From NCBI GenBank assembly GCA_046483985.1, contig JAWOCD010000040.1:1-64000 (forward strand): DNA of 64,000 nt. The letters run 5' to 3'. The notes under the pieces were generated by a model. The model was not told where the DNA came from and did no database searches. It was given only the letters and a program-made list of their open reading frames with translations. Below are positions 54,563-64,000 of the stretch, piece after piece (within the stretch, counting starts at the first letter, position 1; every line of letters begins with the position of its first letter). The translations under genes were made by a program, and so were the position numbers. This DNA is from Promethearchaeia archaeon (GTDB taxonomy: Archaea > Asgardarchaeota > Lokiarchaeia > Sigyniarchaeales > SOKP01).

Positions 54563-57031
54563 TTAGCCGTTATTAATATATTCGGGAATTAACAAGATAA
54601 AGTTACTCCCTTTTGAATAGTCGTTTTTTACTCTATTTTCTACCCGAATATGGCCATTTAATTGATTGACAATCCTCTTCACTAAAGATAGGCCTAAACC
54701 CATTCCCTTTCCCGATTTTTGCTCAAATTTTCTCCTCTGAAATATTTTATCCTTGATCTCATCTTTAATGCCAATTCCATTATCAATAATCTCAATCTGG
54801 ATAAACTGAGTGCTCTCACGAGTTATTTTATGGACTTTTATGTTAATTTCAATTAATTTATTATCATTATGCCTTACAGCATTTATCAGAATATTTTCAA
54901 ACACATCTTGCAACATATTATTGGCCTTAACATATAAATCTTCATGAGAAAAAGAAGTGGTAATCTCTAGATTTTTTGATTTAAAACTTTTTTCGATATA
55001 ATTAATTGCATCAAACAATATATTTCTTAAATCAAATTTTCTTAACTTGATCTTTTCTTCTCTATTAAATTCCGTTAATTTGCGGACATTCGATACTAAT
55101 TTTGTACCCCTAACGATTTGCTCTTTGATTATATCCAAAAATATCGGAATCTTTTTTCTCTTTTCAGGACTTTTCATATAATTTTTACTTAAATCAACTG
55201 AAGTATTAATATTTTGTAAAATATTGCTTATATCGTGGGCAAATAGATCTTTGTATAACTGGGTATGATAATAGGATTCTTGATAACTTTTTTGAATTTT
55301 TCTTAGCTCGGTAATGTTTTTTCCGACTTCAACCGCACCGATCAATTCTCCTACTTCATTTTCAACGGGATAAGCTTTTAATTCCCAATATCGACCGTCA
55401 TAGGTTGTAGTTTCATCCATACACGGTTTTCCGGTATCCACAGCTCTTTCAACGGGACAATTTTCACATGGAGTCGGACGATTATTCCATATTTCATAAC
55501 ATTTTTTACCTTGTAATTCGGCTTTGGTATAATCTACAGAATCAGCTGCCGCAACATTTGTCCAAATAATGTTATGATCCAAGTCTTGGAATGCAATCAG
55601 TTCTGAAATACTCCTTAAGATAATCGACTTATCTCTTTCCGATTCTTTTAACTTCTGTCGAGCTCTCTTTTCAGCCGTTATGTCTAAAACGGAAATAAAG
55701 GTCGCAGGCTCATCTTCATATTGAATCGATTTAGAATAGACTTCCAACCATATTTCTTCCTTATCTTTGCTATAACTCTGAATGGTACAATGGTTTATAA
55801 CATTTGTATTAGAGTTTTGTTCTTTTAGTGTTTTTCCTTCAACAGAATCTCTATATCCTGGAGATGTATTTTCAATTATATCATCTAACGTCCATTTATG
55901 GAGCTTTTCTATATCATAACCCAGAATATCTCCCATTGTTTTATTAACGTATTTTACGTGGTTATCTTGCAAGATAAAGATCCCCATTAAAGAATGTTCG
56001 GTTAGATTTCGAAATTTTATTTCGGACTTTCTCAGCTGTTCGGTTCTCTGTTTAATTTTTTGCTCTAACTCGAGATTAAGGTTCTTAAGTTTTTGTTTAG
56101 ATTTTCTTAATTCCAATTCAATGTCATGTTGCTTTAAGGCATTTCCCACAATATCCGCGGTAATTTTTAGTAAATTTAATGCTGTTTTTTTCCATTTACG
56201 GGAGGAGATGTTATAATCAAATCCAATAAATCCAACCACGTTTTCGCCCTTATATACAGGAAGATACAAGATGGAATCGATATTTTGATGGGAAAATAAC
56301 TCCCTTTCGGCTGATGCTTCAGGCGGTAGATTATTGATGTTGGGATAATTAATAACCTCTCCCTTAGAGATCTTAGTAAAAGTCCATGAATAATCATCCA
56401 TAGGGATTTCTTGGAGGAAAGAGATTTGGGATGATATTCCCTCAGCACACCATTCATGAGTATTACTGAAAGTATTTTTCTCCTCATCCAACTGAAATAA
56501 GTAAGCACGACTCGCGTCTACAAATTTTCCAATCTTTCTCAAGGCAAAATTAATCTTTTCATCGAAATTTTTTAATTCTACAAATTTAGAAGAAATCTCG
56601 GACAAAATACTTTCAAGTTTTAATTTCTGATCCAATTTATGTGTCTTTTTTTTTAGTTCAGAAATGTTATGTAGATACATAATCACATACTTCGGTGGAA
56701 AATAGGTATATATTGCCCTAAAATATAGCCGCTCTTTAGAATCTTTTAGTTTATATTTGATTTTTTTTGAAATTTTTTTCTTTTTCTTATAAGCATTTCC
56801 CAAATCATCCACTATCTCTGGTTGATCTTCATAAAAAGAAGAAGCTGAAACGTCTGAAATGTCTGTGGAATCATATATCATGCCTGCCGAAAATTTATAT
56901 CCCGCTCGATTATATCCTGCCAAAATCAGATTTTGATCTTCTTTTTCCCAGATAAAAAAAGGATCAGGAAGATAATTAATCAATTGGGTGAATTTTTCCG
57001 GAATTTCCTGTTTTTCGTGTGAATGCTCCAA
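54563..57031 (-). CDS. Cytoplasmic PAS/GAF sensor histidine kinase
   Basis: GAF domain, two to three PAS domains, H-box FAHDISN, N-box ENILINA, DNGIGI, GMGLGL. Confidence 0.92.
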   Translation of the reverse strand: MEHSHEKQEIPEKFTQLINYLPDPFFIWEKEDQNLILAGYNRAGYKFSAGMIYDSTDISDVSASSFYEDQPEIVDDLGNAYKKKKKISKKIKYKLKDSKERLYFRAIYTYFPPKYVIMYLHNISELKKKTHKLDQKLKLESILSEISSKFVELKNFDEKINFALRKIGKFVDASRAYLFQLDEEKNTFSNTHEWCAEGISSQISFLQEIPMDDYSWTFTKISKGEVINYPNINNLPPEASAERELFSHQNIDSILYLPVYKGENVVGFIGFDYNISSRKWKKTALNLLKITADIVGNALKQHDIELELRKSKQKLKNLNLELEQKIKQRTEQLRKSEIKFRNLTEHSLMGIFILQDNHVKYVNKTMGDILGYDIEKLHKWTLDDIIENTSPGYRDSVEGKTLKEQNSNTNVINHCTIQSYSKDKEEIWLEVYSKSIQYEDEPATFISVLDITAEKRARQKLKESERDKSIILRSISELIAFQDLDHNIIWTNVAAADSVDYTKAELQGKKCYEIWNNRPTPCENCPVERAVDTGKPCMDETTTYDGRYWELKAYPVENEVGELIGAVEVGKNITELRKIQKSYQESYYHTQLYKDLFAHDISNILQNINTSVDLSKNYMKSPEKRKKIPIFLDIIKEQIVRGTKLVSNVRKLTEFNREEKIKLRKFDLRNILFDAINYIEKSFKSKNLEITTSFSHEDLYVKANNMLQDVFENILINAVRHNDNKLIEINIKVHKITRESTQFIQIEIIDNGIGIKDEIKDKIFQRRKFEQKSGKGMGLGLSLVKRIVNQLNGHIRVENRVKNDYSKGSNFILLIPEYINNG

Positions 57032-57551: not shown

Positions 57552-58484
57552 TTATTCGCCTTTGATAATTTTCTCTAGATAAGGGAAAAATCTGGTGTAA
57601 TGGACTGCCATGCAATGGATACCGTCAATTAAATCCTTGCTTTTGAGCTCTGTAATAAATGGTTTAAAGTGCTTATAGTTCAGTTCGTCGTACATCTCCC
57701 TCTTCTTCTCTTTATTGGGGGCATTTTTCTTTACGTCTTTCCAACTCGCAAGGACCTCTTTTGGAACATCTACTCCAGGCACAAACATATCAAAACCTTT
57801 TGCAATACCATAAGATTTCATCGGAAAAATTCCAAGCATTATCGGCACATCATATTTTTTAATTTCTTTTAAAAATTCGATGGTTTTGTCGATATCATAG
57901 ACAACTTGTGTTTGAAAGAATTCTGCTCCTGCTTTTGCCTTTCTCTTGATTTTAAGCACTTCAGACATCATCGGATCTGCATTTGGATTCGCAGCCGCAC
58001 CAACATGAAGAGTGGGTGGATGTTCGATTTCTTCTCCATTTATCTTCCCAGTATCAACCATTTCTCTTACCATCTGAACAAGAGTAGCGGAATCTAAATC
58101 AAATACGGGTTTACATTCCGGCATATCTCCCATTGCAGGATGATCTCCGGTAAGTGACAGTACATTCCGAATTCCTAATGCATGTGCTCCCATAATCATT
58201 CCAGCAATGCCTAATCTATTACAATCTCGTACAGTTAATTGCCATACACATTCCAAACCCGTCTCATCTTGGATAATTTTTGTAGCTGCCATCGAATTAA
58301 TGGTGACAATGCCCAGCGGACTGTCGGTGACGTTCGCGGCAGTCACATATGGAGCCATTTCCTTTGCCTCTTCTACTGTATGGGAAAGATCGCATGTTTT
58401 CTCAGGTTCAAGTTCTCCAGTTAACACAAAATCTCCACTAGCTAATTTTTCTCCTAATTTTGAATATATTTTCTTATCTGACAT
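57552..58484 (-). CDS. metF: Methylenetetrahydrofolate reductase
   Basis: Motifs ELEP, ANVTD, RDCNR, LTGDHP, GAEFFQTQ. Confidence 0.92.
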   Translation of the reverse strand: MSDKKIYSKLGEKLASGDFVLTGELEPEKTCDLSHTVEEAKEMAPYVTAANVTDSPLGIVTINSMAATKIIQDETGLECVWQLTVRDCNRLGIAGMIMGAHALGIRNVLSLTGDHPAMGDMPECKPVFDLDSATLVQMVREMVDTGKINGEEIEHPPTLHVGAAANPNADPMMSEVLKIKRKAKAGAEFFQTQVVYDIDKTIEFLKEIKKYDVPIMLGIFPMKSYGIAKGFDMFVPGVDVPKEVLASWKDVKKNAPNKEKKREMYDELNYKHFKPFITELKSKDLIDGIHCMAVHYTRFFPYLEKIIKGE

Positions 58485-58499
58485 TTGTCTAATTCACCT

Positions 58500-59180
58500 C
58501 TATCTAAATACAACCTCTTGCTGGTGCCCAGTATCTGACCAGTCTCGAGGTTCTCGTAGTTTTTCGAATAAATCTAACCTTCCTAAGGCTTTTAACCGCT
58601 CGAAAATTAGGACCCAGCCGCAATCTCGTTCGTAATCGTCCACTTCACACTTTCCTTCCACCATACCGCCGCATGGACCATTCATAAGTCCTTTTGCGCA
58701 CGTAGTAATAGGGCAGATGCCTCCCGTATAATTTAACAAACAGTCTCCGCAAGCTCCACACCGTTTATAAAAACGTCCGATTCGCTTAGTTTCCCCAATA
58801 AATTCTGTGTTATTGGTAATCAATACGGGAACATCAGCATAATCGGAATGTCTCTTCTGAAGCACATGGGTAATACTGGCAACCCCCAATCCGCAACTTA
58901 ACGTAAGAACCGCATCCATCTCAGGTAATATATCTCTGACCTTTCGAAGGTCTTTCATCATCACCCGATTGTCACAAACATCTTCGGCAACGATGGTGGT
59001 TAATACTTCATAGCCTTTTTCAGTGAGTTTTTCCTCCCACTCTTCAGCACCTTCGGTACCGCCAGTCTGGCAGAGTGCGGCACAAGTCCCGCAACTGACC
59101 AACAAAATCTTTTCTACGCCAAAATCTTCTAGCGCTTCAAAAACCTCTTCTTTAGGTTTTTTCGTGGTAATAACTACCAT
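58500..59180 (-). CDS. metV: MTHFR accessory Fe-S subunit MetV
   Basis: Motifs CGTCAALCQTGG, CGLG, CGACGDC, CPITTCAKGLMNGPCGG, CGW. Confidence 0.9.
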   Translation of the reverse strand: MVVITTKKPKEEVFEALEDFGVEKILLVSCGTCAALCQTGGTEGAEEWEEKLTEKGYEVLTTIVAEDVCDNRVMMKDLRKVRDILPEMDAVLTLSCGLGVASITHVLQKRHSDYADVPVLITNNTEFIGETKRIGRFYKRCGACGDCLLNYTGGICPITTCAKGLMNGPCGGMVEGKCEVDDYERDCGWVLIFERLKALGRLDLFEKLREPRDWSDTGHQQEVVFR

Positions 59181-59671
59181 TTTTATTATACCTCTTTAAG
59201 TTATTTAATTATTTATGATAACATTTATTTTGTAGTTAGGAAAATTAATGAGAGAAATTAAGGTTAATCCTTACATATCATAAGTGAAATTATAGTAGAG
59301 CGATCTTGTCATCGTGAACATTTTCGCTTTTCAGATATACTTTCTCTTGATTATTGACGAAAATGATAGTTTGAGAGGCTTTTTTATGTCATTTTCAACA
59401 AAAGCATAAATCGAATATGAAAAGTTATAATATTTTTTGAATTGAAGAAAAATTTGGGTATTGTTCAATCAGATCAAAATAAAGACGAATAGGAATTAAT
59501 GATTGATGAATAATTAATAAAAAATTCAATACTCCTAAAAAGCTAGATTGAGATTTATAGATTCAAATCGATAATTTTAAATCCTAATGTCTATTATTTC
59601 TATGTGAGTCTTAATAATAAAACGATAAAGGAATACACAAAGAATTGGTGATTTAAATAGCTGTAACTTAC

Positions 59672-61354
59672 ATGAAGAAGCTGGAAGAAGAACCAAGATC
59701 ATATAAATCCCAGTTTACGCAATTAACAAAAGGTATAAACTTAAAAGCTCAAGAATGGATTTTATCGAAGGTCGATACCAACCAATCGATTCTGGAAGCG
59801 GGTTGTGGAACGGGTTTATTAGCACATAAACTAGCCCTTAAAGGAAATACGGTGAGGGCAATAGACAAGAACCCCAAAATGATAGAATTTGCTTCGGACA
59901 AATATCAGCAAGATAAGGAGAACAATCTTACATATCAAGTTGCTTCTATTGAAGATTTACCAGTTGATCAAAGATCACAAGATATCATCATCAGTACCTT
60001 TATGCTTTCGGAATTAAGGCCATTTGAACAGCAAACTTTTCTTCGGAACGCTTGGAAGGCTCTAAAAGAGGGGGGGAAACTAATCCTTGCTTCAGAATTT
60101 ATAGCCTCAGGTATATGGAAATTGGGCTTCAAGTTAAAAAGATGGAGATATAAAAAAAAATTAGAACGCCTTAAACTCCCCGCCACTCATCCCTTGGAAA
60201 ATTTTTACCAGTATTTAGAACCAATAGGGTTTAAAATTCTTAACGAAACCAAATGGAATCACGGCACTATCCATGTACTTGAATTACAGAAGACAATTAG
60301 AGGAGATCTGGATCAGAACGATGAGGAAGGATTATCTAAAAATAAACCAGGGTACTATCGTCCAGAATCCCTTAAATTTAAGGGATTAAGTTCACAGTTA
60401 AAAATCTACCGGTGTCTTTTTACGGGACAAATAGATAATGTGCCGATAGAACCTGGAATTTATCAATCTGGCAATCCTGATAAGGAATCACCAATCATAG
60501 TTACGGCAAACTATTACTACACCTATGCAAAGGTTATGCGCAACTTAGAAGGGATTGATGCTTGGGTTTTATGTGTTGATACAAATGGAATTAATGTGTG
60601 GTGTGCCGCTCGAGGGGGAGACTTCGGTAATCAGCAATTATTAGAAGCGATAAACGCCACCAATATTCAAGACCTAACAGACTCTCGTACCCTGATACTC
60701 CCTCAATTAGCCGCGGGAGGGGTTGCGTTACCCAAACTTCCTGAAGATCCAAAAGATTTTCCATTTTCCGTAGAATATGGTCCGATATGGTCCAAATATC
60801 TAAAAGAGTATCTCAAACAAGAAGGGGGGCAGAGAAAGACTCCCGAAATGAAACGAGCAAAATTTACGCTTTCCCATAGAATCAGGGCGGGAGTGACCCA
60901 TACCACCTTTCTATTCCGAAAAATCTTTGCAAAACCTCTGATAGTGATTTTTTTGGCTCTTTTCCTCCTTAACTACTTTAATTTTATAAATAGATTATGG
61001 TGGATGGGGGACCTCATTTTATGGCTTTTAATCCCCAATTTACTCATTCCAATCATATATCCCCTTTCCCAATTTACAAGAAAATTTATCTTTAAGGGAA
61101 CCTTATTTGGTACTATAAATATCTTCCTCTCGGGTTTTATCTCATGGGTAATGTATGGATCCTTACTGTATTCTGCACTTAATTCCATACTTTTTTTCTG
61201 GATAACTTTCTTCAGTACAATGTCCTTTAGCGGTTATACGATGTCAACAAACCCCCGAAAAATTCAAGAGGAATACTCAACATTCCGTAAAATCAACGTT
61301 ATTTTACTGTTATCAGCGATAATATTAACATTTTTAAGTTTAGTATTTATTTAA
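59672..61354 (+). CDS. hgcA: Class I SAM methyltransferase fused to an HgcA-like corrinoid membrane protein
   Basis: N-terminal LEAGCGTG/AID SAM motifs; then PGIY-GNP, VTANY, DTNGINVWCAARGG, ILPQL, YGP; 4-5 C-terminal TM helices with FSGYT. Possible ATA start at 59657. Confidence 0.85.
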   Translation: MKKLEEEPRSYKSQFTQLTKGINLKAQEWILSKVDTNQSILEAGCGTGLLAHKLALKGNTVRAIDKNPKMIEFASDKYQQDKENNLTYQVASIEDLPVDQRSQDIIISTFMLSELRPFEQQTFLRNAWKALKEGGKLILASEFIASGIWKLGFKLKRWRYKKKLERLKLPATHPLENFYQYLEPIGFKILNETKWNHGTIHVLELQKTIRGDLDQNDEEGLSKNKPGYYRPESLKFKGLSSQLKIYRCLFTGQIDNVPIEPGIYQSGNPDKESPIIVTANYYYTYAKVMRNLEGIDAWVLCVDTNGINVWCAARGGDFGNQQLLEAINATNIQDLTDSRTLILPQLAAGGVALPKLPEDPKDFPFSVEYGPIWSKYLKEYLKQEGGQRKTPEMKRAKFTLSHRIRAGVTHTTFLFRKIFAKPLIVIFLALFLLNYFNFINRLWWMGDLILWLLIPNLLIPIIYPLSQFTRKFIFKGTLFGTINIFLSGFISWVMYGSLLYSALNSILFFWITFFSTMSFSGYTMSTNPRKIQEEYSTFRKINVILLLSAIILTFLSLVFI

Positions 61355-61414
61355 TTAATGGAAATATCTAAAAGAAAGAAATAGAATATAATAATTAAAG
61401 AAAAATGGAAGTGT

Positions 61415-61762
61415 TTGAATGATATGATTCGAAATACAATAAATGACAAAGAGAATTCTAGTTGTTGTTCGTCTCCTAATATGGGAAATATTATGGGGGC
61501 ACTTGATATTCCGGTTTTTATTGATCCGTCAAAATGTGTAGGATGCGGTTTTTGTGAAGAATTATGCCCCTTTGGGCTTCCCAAAAATGACGGAAAGGGA
61601 AAATATTATGTGGAGGCCCCCGAAGAATGTGTTGAGTGCAGTGCATGTCAGCGAAACTGTCCTGCAGATGCAATCATCTTGGAGGAACAAAAAGGATGTG
61701 GGTGTTTATGGGATGCAAAAAACCGAATAAAGGAAAAGAATAATACATCTAAATGCTGTTAA
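61415..61762 (+). CDS. hgcB: HgcB-like 2[4Fe-4S] ferredoxin
   Basis: CVGCGFCEELCP, CVECSACQRNCP, GCGC, terminal CC; immediately after the hgcA-like gene. Confidence 0.85.
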   Translation: MNDMIRNTINDKENSSCCSSPNMGNIMGALDIPVFIDPSKCVGCGFCEELCPFGLPKNDGKGKYYVEAPEECVECSACQRNCPADAIILEEQKGCGCLWDAKNRIKEKNNTSKCC

Positions 61763-61975: not shown

Positions 61976-62707
61976 TTACTCACCATATGATGATTCTGCC
62001 ATTCGCTCTGCCAATTCTTCTTTCAATTCTCGAATAAATCGGTTTAGTTCTTCACTTTGAGAAAGAAATTCTTCATTATGCAGCCCATTTATTAAAGAGA
62101 GAATATGAATTATGCCAGAAACCTCCTTATCACATGTGTGCCCGAACCGAGGTGCTCTGCATTCATGGCAGACACGGAGAGCAAAATCTTGGAGAGTTTC
62201 AACATCCAACTTCTTATTTTGTATAAACTTAGCACCTGCCTCTGAAGAGCCACAAGGAGAAACTCGTCTAATTTTTATAAACTTTACATCTCCATTATTA
62301 TCTACTTTAAGATCAAAATTAGGTTTTCCGAATTTCTCAGCAAAAGCGTCAATCTCTTGAATCCGCATATTGGGTTCTAATGAACACATTGTGCGCGGAC
62401 CGATTGATTTTGAATTTATATCTTTTACTTGCCTTAATAGACCTCTCCCAGGAGTTATCCCTAATATTAATGGTTTTTGAAGTTCTGCGATTTCTAATAT
62501 GATATCTGGGTGCCTAACATACACAACATATAAGTCACATTCTGGGATTTTTAAATCTAATCCATCATCAAGCATAATATTCGGTGAAATATCGGGAACT
62601 TCAATCCAGTTAGTGGAAAAAAATCTCTTAAAGTTTTCATAAGCTCTTTCCCCATATTTTCCATCTGTAATTAACCCAATAGTTATGACTCTATCTTCTT
62701 CATTCAT
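61976..62707 (-). CDS. DUF166-like protein
   Basis: GKYGER, HPD, MCSL, FGKP, SPCGS, CRA pattern, recognised from memory of the family. Confidence 0.6.
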   Translation of the reverse strand: MNEEDRVITIGLITDGKYGERAYENFKRFFSTNWIEVPDISPNIMLDDGLDLKIPECDLYVVYVRHPDIILEIAELQKPLILGITPGRGLLRQVKDINSKSIGPRTMCSLEPNMRIQEIDAFAEKFGKPNFDLKVDNNGDVKFIKIRRVSPCGSSEAGAKFIQNKKLDVETLQDFALRVCHECRAPRFGHTCDKEVSGIIHILSLINGLHNEEFLSQSEELNRFIRELKEELAERMAESSYGE

Positions 62708-62750
62708 TGTTTAAGCTCTGAGAAAAGGATTTAGATCAAAAATAAATTAG

Positions 62751-63170
62751 TTATTTTGTCCCATAGAGCTCGTCAACTTTTTGAGAGATCTCTTCCGCTA
62801 TAATTTTTGCTAATTTCAAACCTTTATCTCCTAAGCGTCTTGAACTATCTGGAATTAATTCTGGGTGGGCATCCATAAATTCTTTAACATTAACCATCGC
62901 CGCGGGTTTTCCACTATATTTATCTACGGCAACCCTTGCACATTCCTCTTCACAGCCTTCTACAGTAATGGTTGGATGATTCTTAGCAAAATCTCTCTCT
63001 TCTTGGCCTCCATGTCTTTCCAAACCCCCAGCCATAAAGAGTGGTTGGCATAAAATGATTGTTCGATTGGGACGTAATTCTTCAACGACCATTCTTGCAG
63101 CCGCTCTTGTTAAGGTACCCCCAACTAAATCTTCTCCACTACAAGCGATAATCCCTACTTTTTTTTTCAA
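62751..63170 (-). CDS. DGC-family putative Zn-binding protein
   Basis: IACSG, ILCQP, VEGCEEEC; TTG start at 63170 after GGAGG. Confidence 0.75.
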   Translation of the reverse strand: MKKKVGIIACSGEDLVGGTLTRAAARMVVEELRPNRTIILCQPLFMAGGLERHGGQEERDFAKNHPTITVEGCEEECARVAVDKYSGKPAAMVNVKEFMDAHPELIPDSSRRLGDKGLKLAKIIAEEISQKVDELYGTK

Positions 63171-63171
63171 C

Positions 63172-63594
63172 TTAATCCTCCTCCTTCTCATTATTATGAA
63201 GTAATTCATCTACTTTAGTAGCTATTTTTTCGGCAAGTTTTTTTGATAATTTTTTTGTATTTTCGCCAATGGGTATAATTTTTTGTTCTGGTTTAAGATC
63301 TCGATTCTCTTTTACCACATCTGTGGTCATAAATTGAGCGTCCACCTTACCAGTAGCTTTTTTGAGGTCGTTAAATGAGCATTTTAGAGGGCATCCATCA
63401 ACCGAAATTACATAATTTTCTTTCATTTTTTTGATTGTTTCGTCTTTCCCCTTAACAATCAATGGTAAACATTCGATTTCTGCTTTTTTTTTAGCCAATT
63501 CATCCACAACAATATAAGCCGCTTCTCTGCCAATGCTACCAAAAACTTTCCCTATTCCACTACAAGGTATAATATATACTTTTTTCTTATTCAT
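63172..63594 (-). CDS. DGC-family putative Zn-binding protein
   Basis: IPCSG, ECL, VDGCPLKC. Confidence 0.8.
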   Translation of the reverse strand: MNKKKVYIIPCSGIGKVFGSIGREAAYIVVDELAKKKAEIECLPLIVKGKDETIKKMKENYVISVDGCPLKCSFNDLKKATGKVDAQFMTTDVVKENRDLKPEQKIIPIGENTKKLSKKLAEKIATKVDELLHNNEKEED

Positions 63595-63605
63595 TTCACA
63601 TACAT

Positions 63606-63998
63606 CTATTCTTTTTTATGATGATTTTTTTCCTTTTCCGCTTTATCTTTCATATATTTAAAATAATCTGGACCATCCATCAAAAATTCCTTATCTTCTT
63701 CAAAATTTTCTAATTTTATTTCGGCAAACCACCCTTTTTGATAAGCATCTTTATTCAATAATTCGGGTTGGTCATTTAAGTTGTGATTAATATTTATAAT
63801 CTCTCCAGAGGCAGGAGAAATAAGCTGCAGAACCGTTTTTGTAGATTCAAAATTCCCTACGTCATCAAATTGTTCAATCTTTTTACCTTTTTCTGGAAGA
63901 TCAACAAATAAGATATCACCAGCACTATTTTGTAAATAGTCCGAAATTCCAAGAAGTGCAGTATCTCCTACTGGTTTTACCCAACAATCGTTCTCATT
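63606..63998 (-). CDS. gcvH: GcvH-like lipoyl-carrier protein, 5'-truncated by the window edge
   Basis: Translated by hand: CWVK...GISDY...GDILFVDLP...FESTKTV (lipoyl Lys)...SPASG...PELLN.DAY.KGW. Confidence 0.85.
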   Translation of the reverse strand, partial: NENDCWVKPVGDTALLGISDYLQNSAGDILFVDLPEKGKKIEQFDDVGNFESTKTVLQLISPASGEIININHNLNDQPELLNKDAYQKGWFAEIKLENFEEDKEFLMDGPDYFKYMKDKAEKEKNHHKKE

Positions 63999-64000
63999 AA

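Follow-up and report, generated by a model that had tools for sequence, protein, structure and literature searches.

A stretch of 64,000 nucleotides (nt) from a Promethearchaeia archaeon (GenBank assembly GCA_046483985.1, contig JAWOCD010000040.1, positions 1 to 64,000; hereafter, the window) carries two adjacent genes, one joining a CpaM-like methyltransferase to an HgcA-like corrinoid protein in a single polypeptide and the other encoding an HgcB-like ferredoxin. We propose that the two products form a three-module, membrane-bound methyl-transfer machine of the CpaM/HgcAB-like sister clade of canonical HgcA, in which S-adenosylmethionine (SAM) would methylate the corrinoid cobalt and the methyl group would pass to a soft metal or metalloid; we judge the chances of this proposal to be evenly balanced. 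The sister clade is wholly coupled to a dedicated SAM methyltransferase, be it as a neighbouring gene, as a fusion with the HgcA-like part or as a triple fusion, which provides a concrete, testable wiring diagram. This coupling fits the 2024 discovery of SAM as the methyl donor of HgcAB. The Asgard clade of fusions adds HgcB-type thiols in the ferredoxin and, for most orthologues, embedding among arsR-acr3-(arsM)-arsC genes, which points to arsenic. With this cassette, the native chemistry of the HgcA superfamily comes within reach of experiment.

A methyltransferase joined to an HgcA-like corrinoid protein

The listing of open reading frames (ORFs) in the window contains an uninterrupted frame of 560 residues, and a ferredoxin gene of 115 codons begins 60 nt 3′ of it (Table 1). 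Below, MT denotes the methyltransferase module, A the HgcA-like module and B the ferredoxin. The sequence-only reading of this DNA had described a SAM methyltransferase fused to an HgcA-type corrinoid domain and transmembrane (TM) tail, followed by a separate Cys-rich HgcB-like gene. Both parts of this description were borne out, the three-part architecture by the ORF, Pfam, NCBIfam and an AlphaFold2 (AF2) model, and the separate gene by HgcB as its best family and by two CxxCxxCxxxCP motifs. The span that had been assigned to the pair, 59657-61762, ends correctly at the ferredoxin stop but starts 15 nt 5′ of the ATG. Direct translation places ILEAGCGTGL at 59789-59818 and GINVWCAARGGDFG at 60587-60628; the altered cap helix, with its Cys kept, lies exactly at the positions first given for it, 60593-60619.

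Table 1. Positions in the window of the cassette, its domains and motifs, and neighbouring genes.
Feature	Position	Strand	Evidence
MT-A fusion ORF: CpaM-like methyltransferase, linker, HgcA-like corrinoid domain, TM domain	59672..61354	+	ORF, Pfam, NCBIfam, AF2
CpaM-like class I SAM methyltransferase domain, residues 1-207	59672..60292	+	NF043040 match, conservation, fold match
SAM-binding motif I, LEAGCGTG	59792-59815	+	direct translation
Flexible linker, residues 208-238	60293..60385	+	AF2, without secondary structure; poorly conserved
HgcA-like corrinoid-binding domain, residues 239-399	60386..60868	+	PF03599; 2h9a_A; 9a0b_A structural match
Cap helix NVWCAARGG	60593..60619	+	direct translation
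Membrane domain: five long helices, residues 400-432, 438-468, 472-495, 498-520, 528-559	60869..61348	+	AF2, hydropathy
HgcB-like 2x[4Fe-4S] ferredoxin	61415..61762	+	Pfam, NCBIfam, alignment
DUF166 protein (PF02593), recurrent cassette neighbour	61976..62707	-	Pfam
MetF, divergent from fusion	57552-58484	-	Pfam
MetV-like DUF5981, divergent from fusion	58500-59180	-	Pfam

Pfam recognizes Methyltransf_25/11 at residues 40-139 of the fusion (E = 4e-18) and the CdhD family PF03599 at residues 242-348 (E = 5e-16), and the large subunit of CFeSP (corrinoid iron-sulfur protein; 2h9a_A) matches the corrinoid domain at E = 2.7e-9. The Fer4 motif is absent from the 560-residue protein, the ferredoxin being a separate gene. 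Profile hidden Markov model scoring, proposed in the sequence-only reading, returned CpaM, HgcA and HgcAB_like as the best families; each stayed below its curated cutoff, yet far above all other families. The CpaM model (NF043040) matched residues 1-205 over model positions 5-214 of 216 with 127.6 bits, and with 135.1 bits in a six-frame search of the genome, likewise below the cutoff of 180. HgcA_corrinoid (NF040863) matched residues 258-556 with 182.9 bits (184.5 in the genome search; cutoff 275), and HgcAB_like (NF043039) reached 179.3 bits (cutoff 285) over only model positions 13-272 of 350. For the MT domain the runner-up to CpaM was UbiG, with 59.5 bits, and the ArsM model scored 39.5 bits (cutoff 263). 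The resemblance to CpaM, which the sequence-only reading had noted for the N-terminal residues, is therefore upheld: no other NCBIfam family comes near CpaM in score, the model is covered over its full length and related fusions exceed its cutoff.

The fusion belongs to a large family. A word-indexed database search returned 1,016 relatives, the best 120 of which were all 530-578 residues long, 54-79% identical and of the same methyltransferase plus PF03599 architecture, and came from many independent assemblies. Those with names among these 120 are from metagenome-assembled genomes (MAGs) of Promethearchaeota and Hod-, Hermod-, Heimdall- and Lokiarchaeota, names that are consistent with an Asgard origin of the gene, and they bear no annotation more specific than 'methyltransferase domain-containing protein' or UbiE. 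Some 548-residue fusions of Hodarchaeales already carry the label 'corrinoid protein-associated methyltransferase CpaM' from NCBI's pipeline. NVWCAARG is present in 118 of the best 120 relatives, in which the SAM motif and the N-terminal signature are likewise conserved. Over 40 fusions, down to 29% identity, the invariant residues include M1, L4, E5 and P8 of the N-terminal signature, G44, G46, G48, D65, D104, E114 and G135, among which are SAM-binding positions, and N308, V309, W310 and C311 of the cap helix.

Within the phylum, about 80 of 301 sampled genomes encode a full-length fusion. The source genome's own family accounts for about 50 of these (among 68 genomes; 55-63% identity) and two other families for about 30 (30-35% identity), and all are open frames without stops. 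Since uninterrupted, full-length orthologous frames occur in many independent assemblies, the comparison of sequences excludes an assembly artefact or a frameshift as the origin of the fusion. The sequence-only reading had described the fusion from an Asgard-like archaeon and had suggested a search for it in other genomes; that search yielded the relatives described here, so that the fusion is real but not singular, being one fusion state, in a large family, of the curated CpaM plus HgcAB-like system.

An AF2 model built from the family alignment had a mean predicted local distance difference test (pLDDT) value of 86.2 and a predicted template modelling score of 0.82. The linker, at about residues 208-238, was disordered in this model, with a mean pLDDT of 48 for the block 211-220 and values below 50 at residues 214-216. 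The deposited HgcAB model 9a0b_A was the top structural match of the fusion, and in a structure search the fold of the N-terminal domain resembled Coq5/UbiE-type small-molecule methyltransferases, phosphatidylethanolamine N-methyltransferase and natural-product methyltransferases. The number of TM helices was taken from the AF2 secondary structure, a simple hydropathy count being too low; canonical HgcA also has five (PMC7305189). Cys311 (60602-60604) is the presumed lower ligand of the cobalt. Docking of the MT domain against the corrinoid domain gave an ipSAE (interface score from predicted aligned errors) of 0.42 as against 0.00 for the best of 3 controls, with at least 69% contact agreement between runs and a partner pLDDT of at least 73. 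In the calibration of this score, 58 of 80 solved complexes passed the mark, as did 2 of 110 mismatched pairs, and values at or below 0.60 were those of just 7 of the 80 solved complexes and of both mismatches that passed; the docking hence weakly supports a contact between the two domains.

Fusion states of the system and its place beside canonical HgcA

Three domain probes (MT, A and B) were mapped onto related loci within the phylum, and the modules were found there in all fusion states and never in any order but MT-A-B. The window's form, a fused MT-A followed by a B gene, occurs at ten loci (L023-L032); an MT gene followed by a fused A-B at L033, L034, L041 and L042; the triple fusion MT-A-B at L035 and L036 and in representative P0267; and separate MT and A genes at L038 and L039, where B is separate too, and at L040, where no B-like ORF was detected. 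Separate MT genes exceed the CpaM cutoff of 180 (237.5 and 282.3 bits), as their A-B partners exceed the HgcAB_like cutoff of 285 (367.1 and 397.6 bits). The triple fusion lies above both cutoffs (CpaM score of L035, 260.6), and a diverged MT-A fusion, L030, also passes that of CpaM (222.1 bits). Genuine CpaM plus HgcAB-like pairs are present in genomes of the source genome's own family. Judged by these profiles, the window's clade is a more diverged branch of the system that curators had already paired as CpaM and HgcAB-like.

The same system extends well beyond the phylum. A scan of GTDB species genomes gave 80 loci from many bacterial and archaeal phyla, with an A gene identifiable in 79. 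At the 70 loci with a non-GK cap helix, MT was directly upstream in 59, fused in 8, within about 2 kb in 2 and missing from 1, whereas none of the 9 loci with the canonical GK cap had MT upstream, fused or nearby. Further single-locus look-ups agree with both the MT partnership of the non-GK forms and the MT-less state of canonical hgcA. The genetic coupling of MT and A is thus obligate on the non-canonical side. Triple fusions were found in Desulfobacterales and Calditrichaceae as well. Bacterial MAGs of Chloroflexota (L089, L103, L106) and Candidatus Abyssubacteria (P0177) carry MT-A fusions without a ferredoxin tail, so the MT-A state is not confined to Asgard archaea. CpaM plus HgcAB-like pairs with a 219-220-residue methyltransferase directly upstream were seen at L139, in an [Eubacterium] cellulosolvens record, and at L141, in Candidatus Harpocratesius sp.

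No description of CpaM, of a 'corrinoid protein-associated methyltransferase' or of a methyltransferase-HgcA fusion was found in the literature searched. New with respect to that literature are the MT-A fusion state with a split ferredoxin bearing HgcB-type thiols, the near-universal pairing of the entire sister clade with a SAM methyltransferase, and the strong embedding of the Asgard clade in ars operons.

The ferredoxin carries its own signature. Its best family is HgcB (NF040864), at 52.3 bits (cutoff 99). In an alignment with two canonical HgcB proteins, the window ferredoxin and its orthologues keep both CX2CX2CX3CP cluster motifs and the C-terminal Cys-Cys pair, and GCGC aligns with the canonical GVGC, the Cys73 site of HgcB; the window ferredoxin also has a CC near its N terminus. 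At each of 11 orthologous loci the gene directly follows the fusion on its 3′ side. In the A-B fusions that were sampled, the ferredoxin tail stops soon after the second cluster and has no CC pair, and the separate 72-residue B proteins of L038 and L039 have neither GCGC nor a CC pair.

The position of the fusion relative to HgcA was then read from cap helices and a tree. An exhaustive search with the A part gave about 1,000 representatives at 50% identity, of which the best 150 were sorted by architecture. Among these 150, unfused proteins of 320-400 residues carry the cap NVWCAAGKG(T/S), and the 90 GK-cap representatives of at least 300 residues (90 of the 99 unfused ones) read mostly NVWCAAGKG. 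All MT-fused and ferredoxin-fused proteins but one have xGG caps instead, with R, G, C, S, T or E for G and G for K; the lone exception, P0205, is an A-B form with a GKG cap and falls inside the canonical clade. The window protein departs from the canonical motif N(V/I)WCA(A/G)GK in that its Cys is kept while GK has become RG.

A maximum-likelihood tree of the corrinoid domain (72 rows, 305 columns), an analysis proposed in the sequence-only reading, was rooted with the source genome's own CdhE and placed the fusion with the fused A-B forms in the sister clade of canonical HgcA. The canonical clade holds 35 rows (support 89/90). The sister clade contains all 19 MT-A proteins, all 3 MT-A-B proteins, 9 of the 10 A-B proteins and 5 separate A proteins, with support of 82/75 for 35 of its rows. 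Within it, the window protein belongs to an 11-row clade (100/99) that is joined to a second NVWCAARG clade (98/91). The placement is in line with that of Lin et al. 2023, who put Asgard sequences in the fused-HgcAB clade (PMC10083202); in that study the first 327 alignment columns were trimmed as poorly aligned, which may explain why the N-terminal domain drew no remark. At the position equivalent to the cap GK/GG the source genome's CdhE reads AGG in the alignment, which makes GG the probable ancestral state and GKG the probable later one. We also considered that the canonical cap Lys replaced CpaM in SAM binding. This idea was retained as speculation only: the association is a single clade-level event, and members of the canonical clade with GEG or GRG exist.

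Canonical HgcA itself is rare in these archaea. The source genome, which is 97% complete, contains CdhE and, in a genome search, no HgcA-type gene besides the fusion, and HgcA scored above its cutoff in 1 of the 301 sampled genomes of the phylum (G025, locus L137; 436 bits), where the contig is short and the genome 9% contaminated. Because such hits are this rare whereas the paralogues are common, metagenomic surveys that name Asgardarchaeota as mercury methylators may have counted these paralogues.

Among known systems the closest is CpaM (NF043040) with HgcAB-like (NF043039). It has the same three modules in the same order, a CpaM part that the fusion matches over the whole model, an A domain that groups with that of the fusion, and an xGG cap. 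The two differ in the fused junction, which is MT-A here and A-B there, in the separate ferredoxin with GCGC and a C-terminal CC, and in the ars-operon embedding of the MT-A orthologues, which is rare for the A-B forms. Canonical HgcA (NF040863) shares the CFeSP-homologous corrinoid domain, the cap-helix Cys and the five TM helices, but reads NVWCAAGKG, is without a methyltransferase, whether as a domain or as a neighbour (0 of 9 loci), and lies on the opposite side of the basal split. Canonical HgcB (NF040864) shares the 2x[4Fe-4S] clusters, the Cys73-type Cys and the terminal CC, and canonical hgcAB also has recurrent arsR/acr3/arsC neighbours (PMC7438021; bioRxiv 10.1101/2022.10.17.512643).

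The remaining comparisons are with more distant proteins. The CFeSP large subunit of the Wood-Ljungdahl pathway (AcsC/CdhE) has a homologous PF03599 domain, and it is its representative in the source genome that reads AGG in the cap region. CFeSP lacks both a cap-helix Cys and a TM domain, and receives its methyl group through a TIM-barrel methyl-tetrahydrofolate methyltransferase rather than a SAM enzyme. In MetH reactivation, a SAM-binding module and a low-potential electron donor regenerate methyl-Co(III) on protein-bound cobalamin; the AdoMet domain of MetH, however, has an unrelated fold that is not that of a class I Rossmann methyltransferase, and MetH uses SAM for repair only. ArsM, like the MT domain, is a class I SAM methyltransferase; it is found in ars operons, and its gene is directly upstream of the fusion in L130. 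Conserved cysteines hold As(III) in ArsM, which works without a corrinoid.

Arsenic genes, the proposed methyl transfer and its alternatives

The orthologues of the fusion lie among arsenic genes. According to tblastn, 11 of 15 distinct genomes of the family have acr3 immediately upstream of the fusion, and 2 others have an adjacent arsR. Three orthologue clusters on long contigs have arsR upstream (divergent in L130 and L132), then (DUF166), acr3, (arsM), MT-A, hgcB-like, orf92, orf117, (two arsC) and ydjM. Of the encoded proteins, the full-length ACR3 transporters score 281.9 and 275.6 bits with NCBIfam (cutoff 282.8), the ArsM of L130 347.3 bits (cutoff 263) and the ArsR regulators 69.7 and 74.6 bits (cutoff 55); thioredoxin-type ArsC is the best family of its two matches, at 138.3 and 115.1 bits (cutoff 174.3). 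In the window's own contig, an ArsR with the motif ELCGCEL is encoded about 4 kb downstream of the cassette; beside it are a homologue of orf92 that bears a CxC motif and another DGC protein (C74:65374-66455). A search of the source genome at E ≤ 1e-20 turned up no ArsM; should the cassette act on arsenic, it would be the sole arsenic-methylating system found there. The sequence-only reading had left the substrate open between Hg, As/Se/Sb and a thiol. Of these the orthologue context points to arsenic, and membership of the sister clade makes Hg less likely.

We infer the following cycle, in its chemical steps as well as in its substrate. The HgcB-like ferredoxin would bring the A domain's Cys-ligated corrinoid to the reduced Co(I) state, and the tethered CpaM-like domain would bind SAM and hand its methyl group to Co(I), giving CH3-Co(III). 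The methyl group would then move, as in HgcAB, to a soft electrophilic metal or metalloid held on the extra thiols of the ferredoxin (GCGC and the C-terminal CC). The five-helix membrane domain would be the exit site or exit path of the product, which in most relatives would be dealt with by Acr3. For the sister clade to which the cassette belongs, arsenite or a methylarsenite would be the most likely substrate and Hg(II) a less likely one. A wiring from SAM through cobalamin to substrate is a reasonable reading of the sequences. It is strengthened by the pattern of fusion and fission, by SAM being the demonstrated methyl donor of canonical HgcAB (PMC11588087) and, weakly, by the docking.

In its most specific form this scheme makes MT-A/B a corrinoid-dependent, ArsM-independent arsenite methyltransferase: the MT domain would charge the Cys-ligated cobalamin, the methyl group would go to As(III) on the thiol tail of the ferredoxin with the oxidation state of arsenic unchanged, and a co-transcribed Acr3 would handle the product. 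We offer this version tentatively, as one that is possible but less likely than not. If true, it would define a new enzyme class for anaerobic arsenic methylation. The HgcA superfamily as a whole would then have begun with SAM-based metalloid methylation and not with Hg methylation, and canonical HgcAB would be a later offshoot from which the CpaM partner was lost.

Several observations weigh against the proposed cycle and its arsenic substrate. We know of no class I Rossmann methyltransferase that acts on the cobalt of a protein-bound corrinoid. The MT domain has a single Cys, in motif I, and for this reason, as judged from its sequence, cannot hold As(III) in the manner of ArsM. Because the split in the tree is basal, the association of MT with the cap helix amounts essentially to one clade-level evolutionary event and not to many independent ones, and the deep split itself has moderate support and rests on a single long outgroup. 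The window locus lies outside an ars operon, the acr3 of this genome being on another contig (C101; ACR3 294.1 bits, above cutoff), and ars genes are rare beside A-B forms (2 to 3 of 90 loci). Once purified, canonical HgcAB takes its methyl group from SAM unaided (PMC11588087), which leaves room for a role of the MT domain other than charging cobalt. Nor is the ars context specific to the MT-associated clade, because canonical hgcAB has it too: ArsR is beside 4 and Acr3 beside 2 of the 9 canonical loci, ars neighbours of canonical hgcAB were already reported by McDaniel et al. 2020 (PMC7438021), and Gionfriddo et al. described an ArsR-like hgcAB regulator that responds to arsenic and S-adenosylhomocysteine (bioRxiv 10.1101/2022.10.17.512643).

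One alternative gives the MT domain a repair function only. It would re-methylate oxidized Co(II) with SAM and ferredoxin electrons, while the catalytic methyl group would come from another donor, such as methyl-tetrahydrofolate. The combination of a SAM module, a low-potential electron donor and a corrinoid parallels MetH reactivation, and MetF and MetV, the makers of methyl-tetrahydrofolate, are divergent neighbours of the cassette in the window and in a 79%-identical relative. That adjacency was not found at other orthologous loci, though, no pterin-binding methyltransferase of the MeTr or MtrH type was seen in any cassette, and canonical HgcAB draws its methyl groups stoichiometrically from SAM (PMC11588087). 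We consider a repair-only module unlikely.

The acceptor might also be a thiol, a lipid or another small organic molecule at the membrane, with the ars linkage a lineage-specific operon arrangement. In most phyla, ars genes do not neighbour the A-B forms, acr3 is missing from the window's own locus, and the MT fold is like that of Coq5/UbiE, phosphatidylethanolamine N-methyltransferase and natural-product methyltransferases, all of which would fit such an acceptor. Chance, however, hardly explains the adjacency of acr3 in 11 of 15 genomes together with ArsR, ArsM and ArsC. The extra vicinal thiols of the ferredoxin are typical of metal or metalloid handling, and Cys-ligated corrinoid chemistry suits transfer to soft electrophiles (PMC7305189). 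A non-metal acceptor is therefore improbable in our view.

The cassette could instead be a mercury methylase, a self-charging HgcAB that yields methylmercury. It keeps the NVWC core with the cap-helix Cys, the corrinoid domain and five TM helices of HgcA, and a ferredoxin with the Cys73 equivalent and the C-terminal CC, both of which matter for Hg methylation by HgcB (PMC11588087; PMC7305189). On the other hand, the HgcA score is 182.9 bits where the cutoff is 275, the diagnostic GK is absent, the fusion groups with the sister clade and not with canonical HgcA, and its orthologues are found in ars operons and not in mer or Hg contexts. The sole members of the sister clade to have been tested, the fused homologues of Pyrococcus furiosus and Methanococcoides methylutens, gave no methylmercury (PMC5893877; PMC10083202). 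These negatives may transfer incompletely to the split MT-A/B form, because its ferredoxin keeps thiols that are absent from the sampled A-B tails. That argument would hold if the tested homologues resemble the sampled A-B forms; the two proteins were absent from the 80 GTDB loci and from the top 120 profile matches. On balance, Hg methylation seems quite improbable.

Least probable is that the cassette runs in reverse, moving methyl groups anaerobically from methylated arsenicals or other methyl compounds onto the corrinoid. No enzyme is known for the anaerobic demethylation of methylarsenicals, a reaction for which corrinoid methyltransferases have come under discussion (bioRxiv 10.64898/2026.08.27.747368), and the ars context would fit. 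A demethylase, however, offers no obvious role for a conserved, intact SAM-binding MT domain, and the cassette lacks a protein, for example of the MtaA type, that would take over the methyl group downstream.

Other genes around the cassette

DUF166 adjoins the cassette or opens an ars-type operon at L020, L025, L026, L128, L130 and L132, opening the operon at L130 and L132. MetF and MetV were considered as conserved partners and rejected: they are common only to the window and the 79%-identical orthologue L128, and were not found at 15 or more other loci.

In most orthologous loci (about 15), two small ORFs follow the HgcB-like gene (L130:8023-8803, L133:8046-9195). The first, orf92 or orf129, has a conserved CxCxW motif, and orf117 has a Cys at its end. 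The ArsR gene beyond the window opens a group on the forward strand (C74:65374-67194) that continues with a 93-residue CxC protein, which is the orf92 homologue, a DGC-domain protein and a 216-residue membrane protein, whose sequence looks CcdA/DsbD-like.

On the minus strand 3′ of the cassette, a block from window position 61976 to 64000 and on (C74:62000-65186) encodes the DUF166 protein, two DGC-domain proteins, a 291-residue DGC-GcvH fusion, a 101-residue 2x[4Fe-4S] ferredoxin and a Cys-rich 131-residue protein; the same block is present in L128. Neither Pfam nor NCBIfam gave a match for orf92/orf129, orf117, the 131-residue protein or the 216-residue membrane protein. Upstream of MetF, the window encodes an 822-residue sensor histidine kinase with a GAF and at least two PAS domains (54563-57031, minus strand), and a similar kinase occupies the same relative position in L128.

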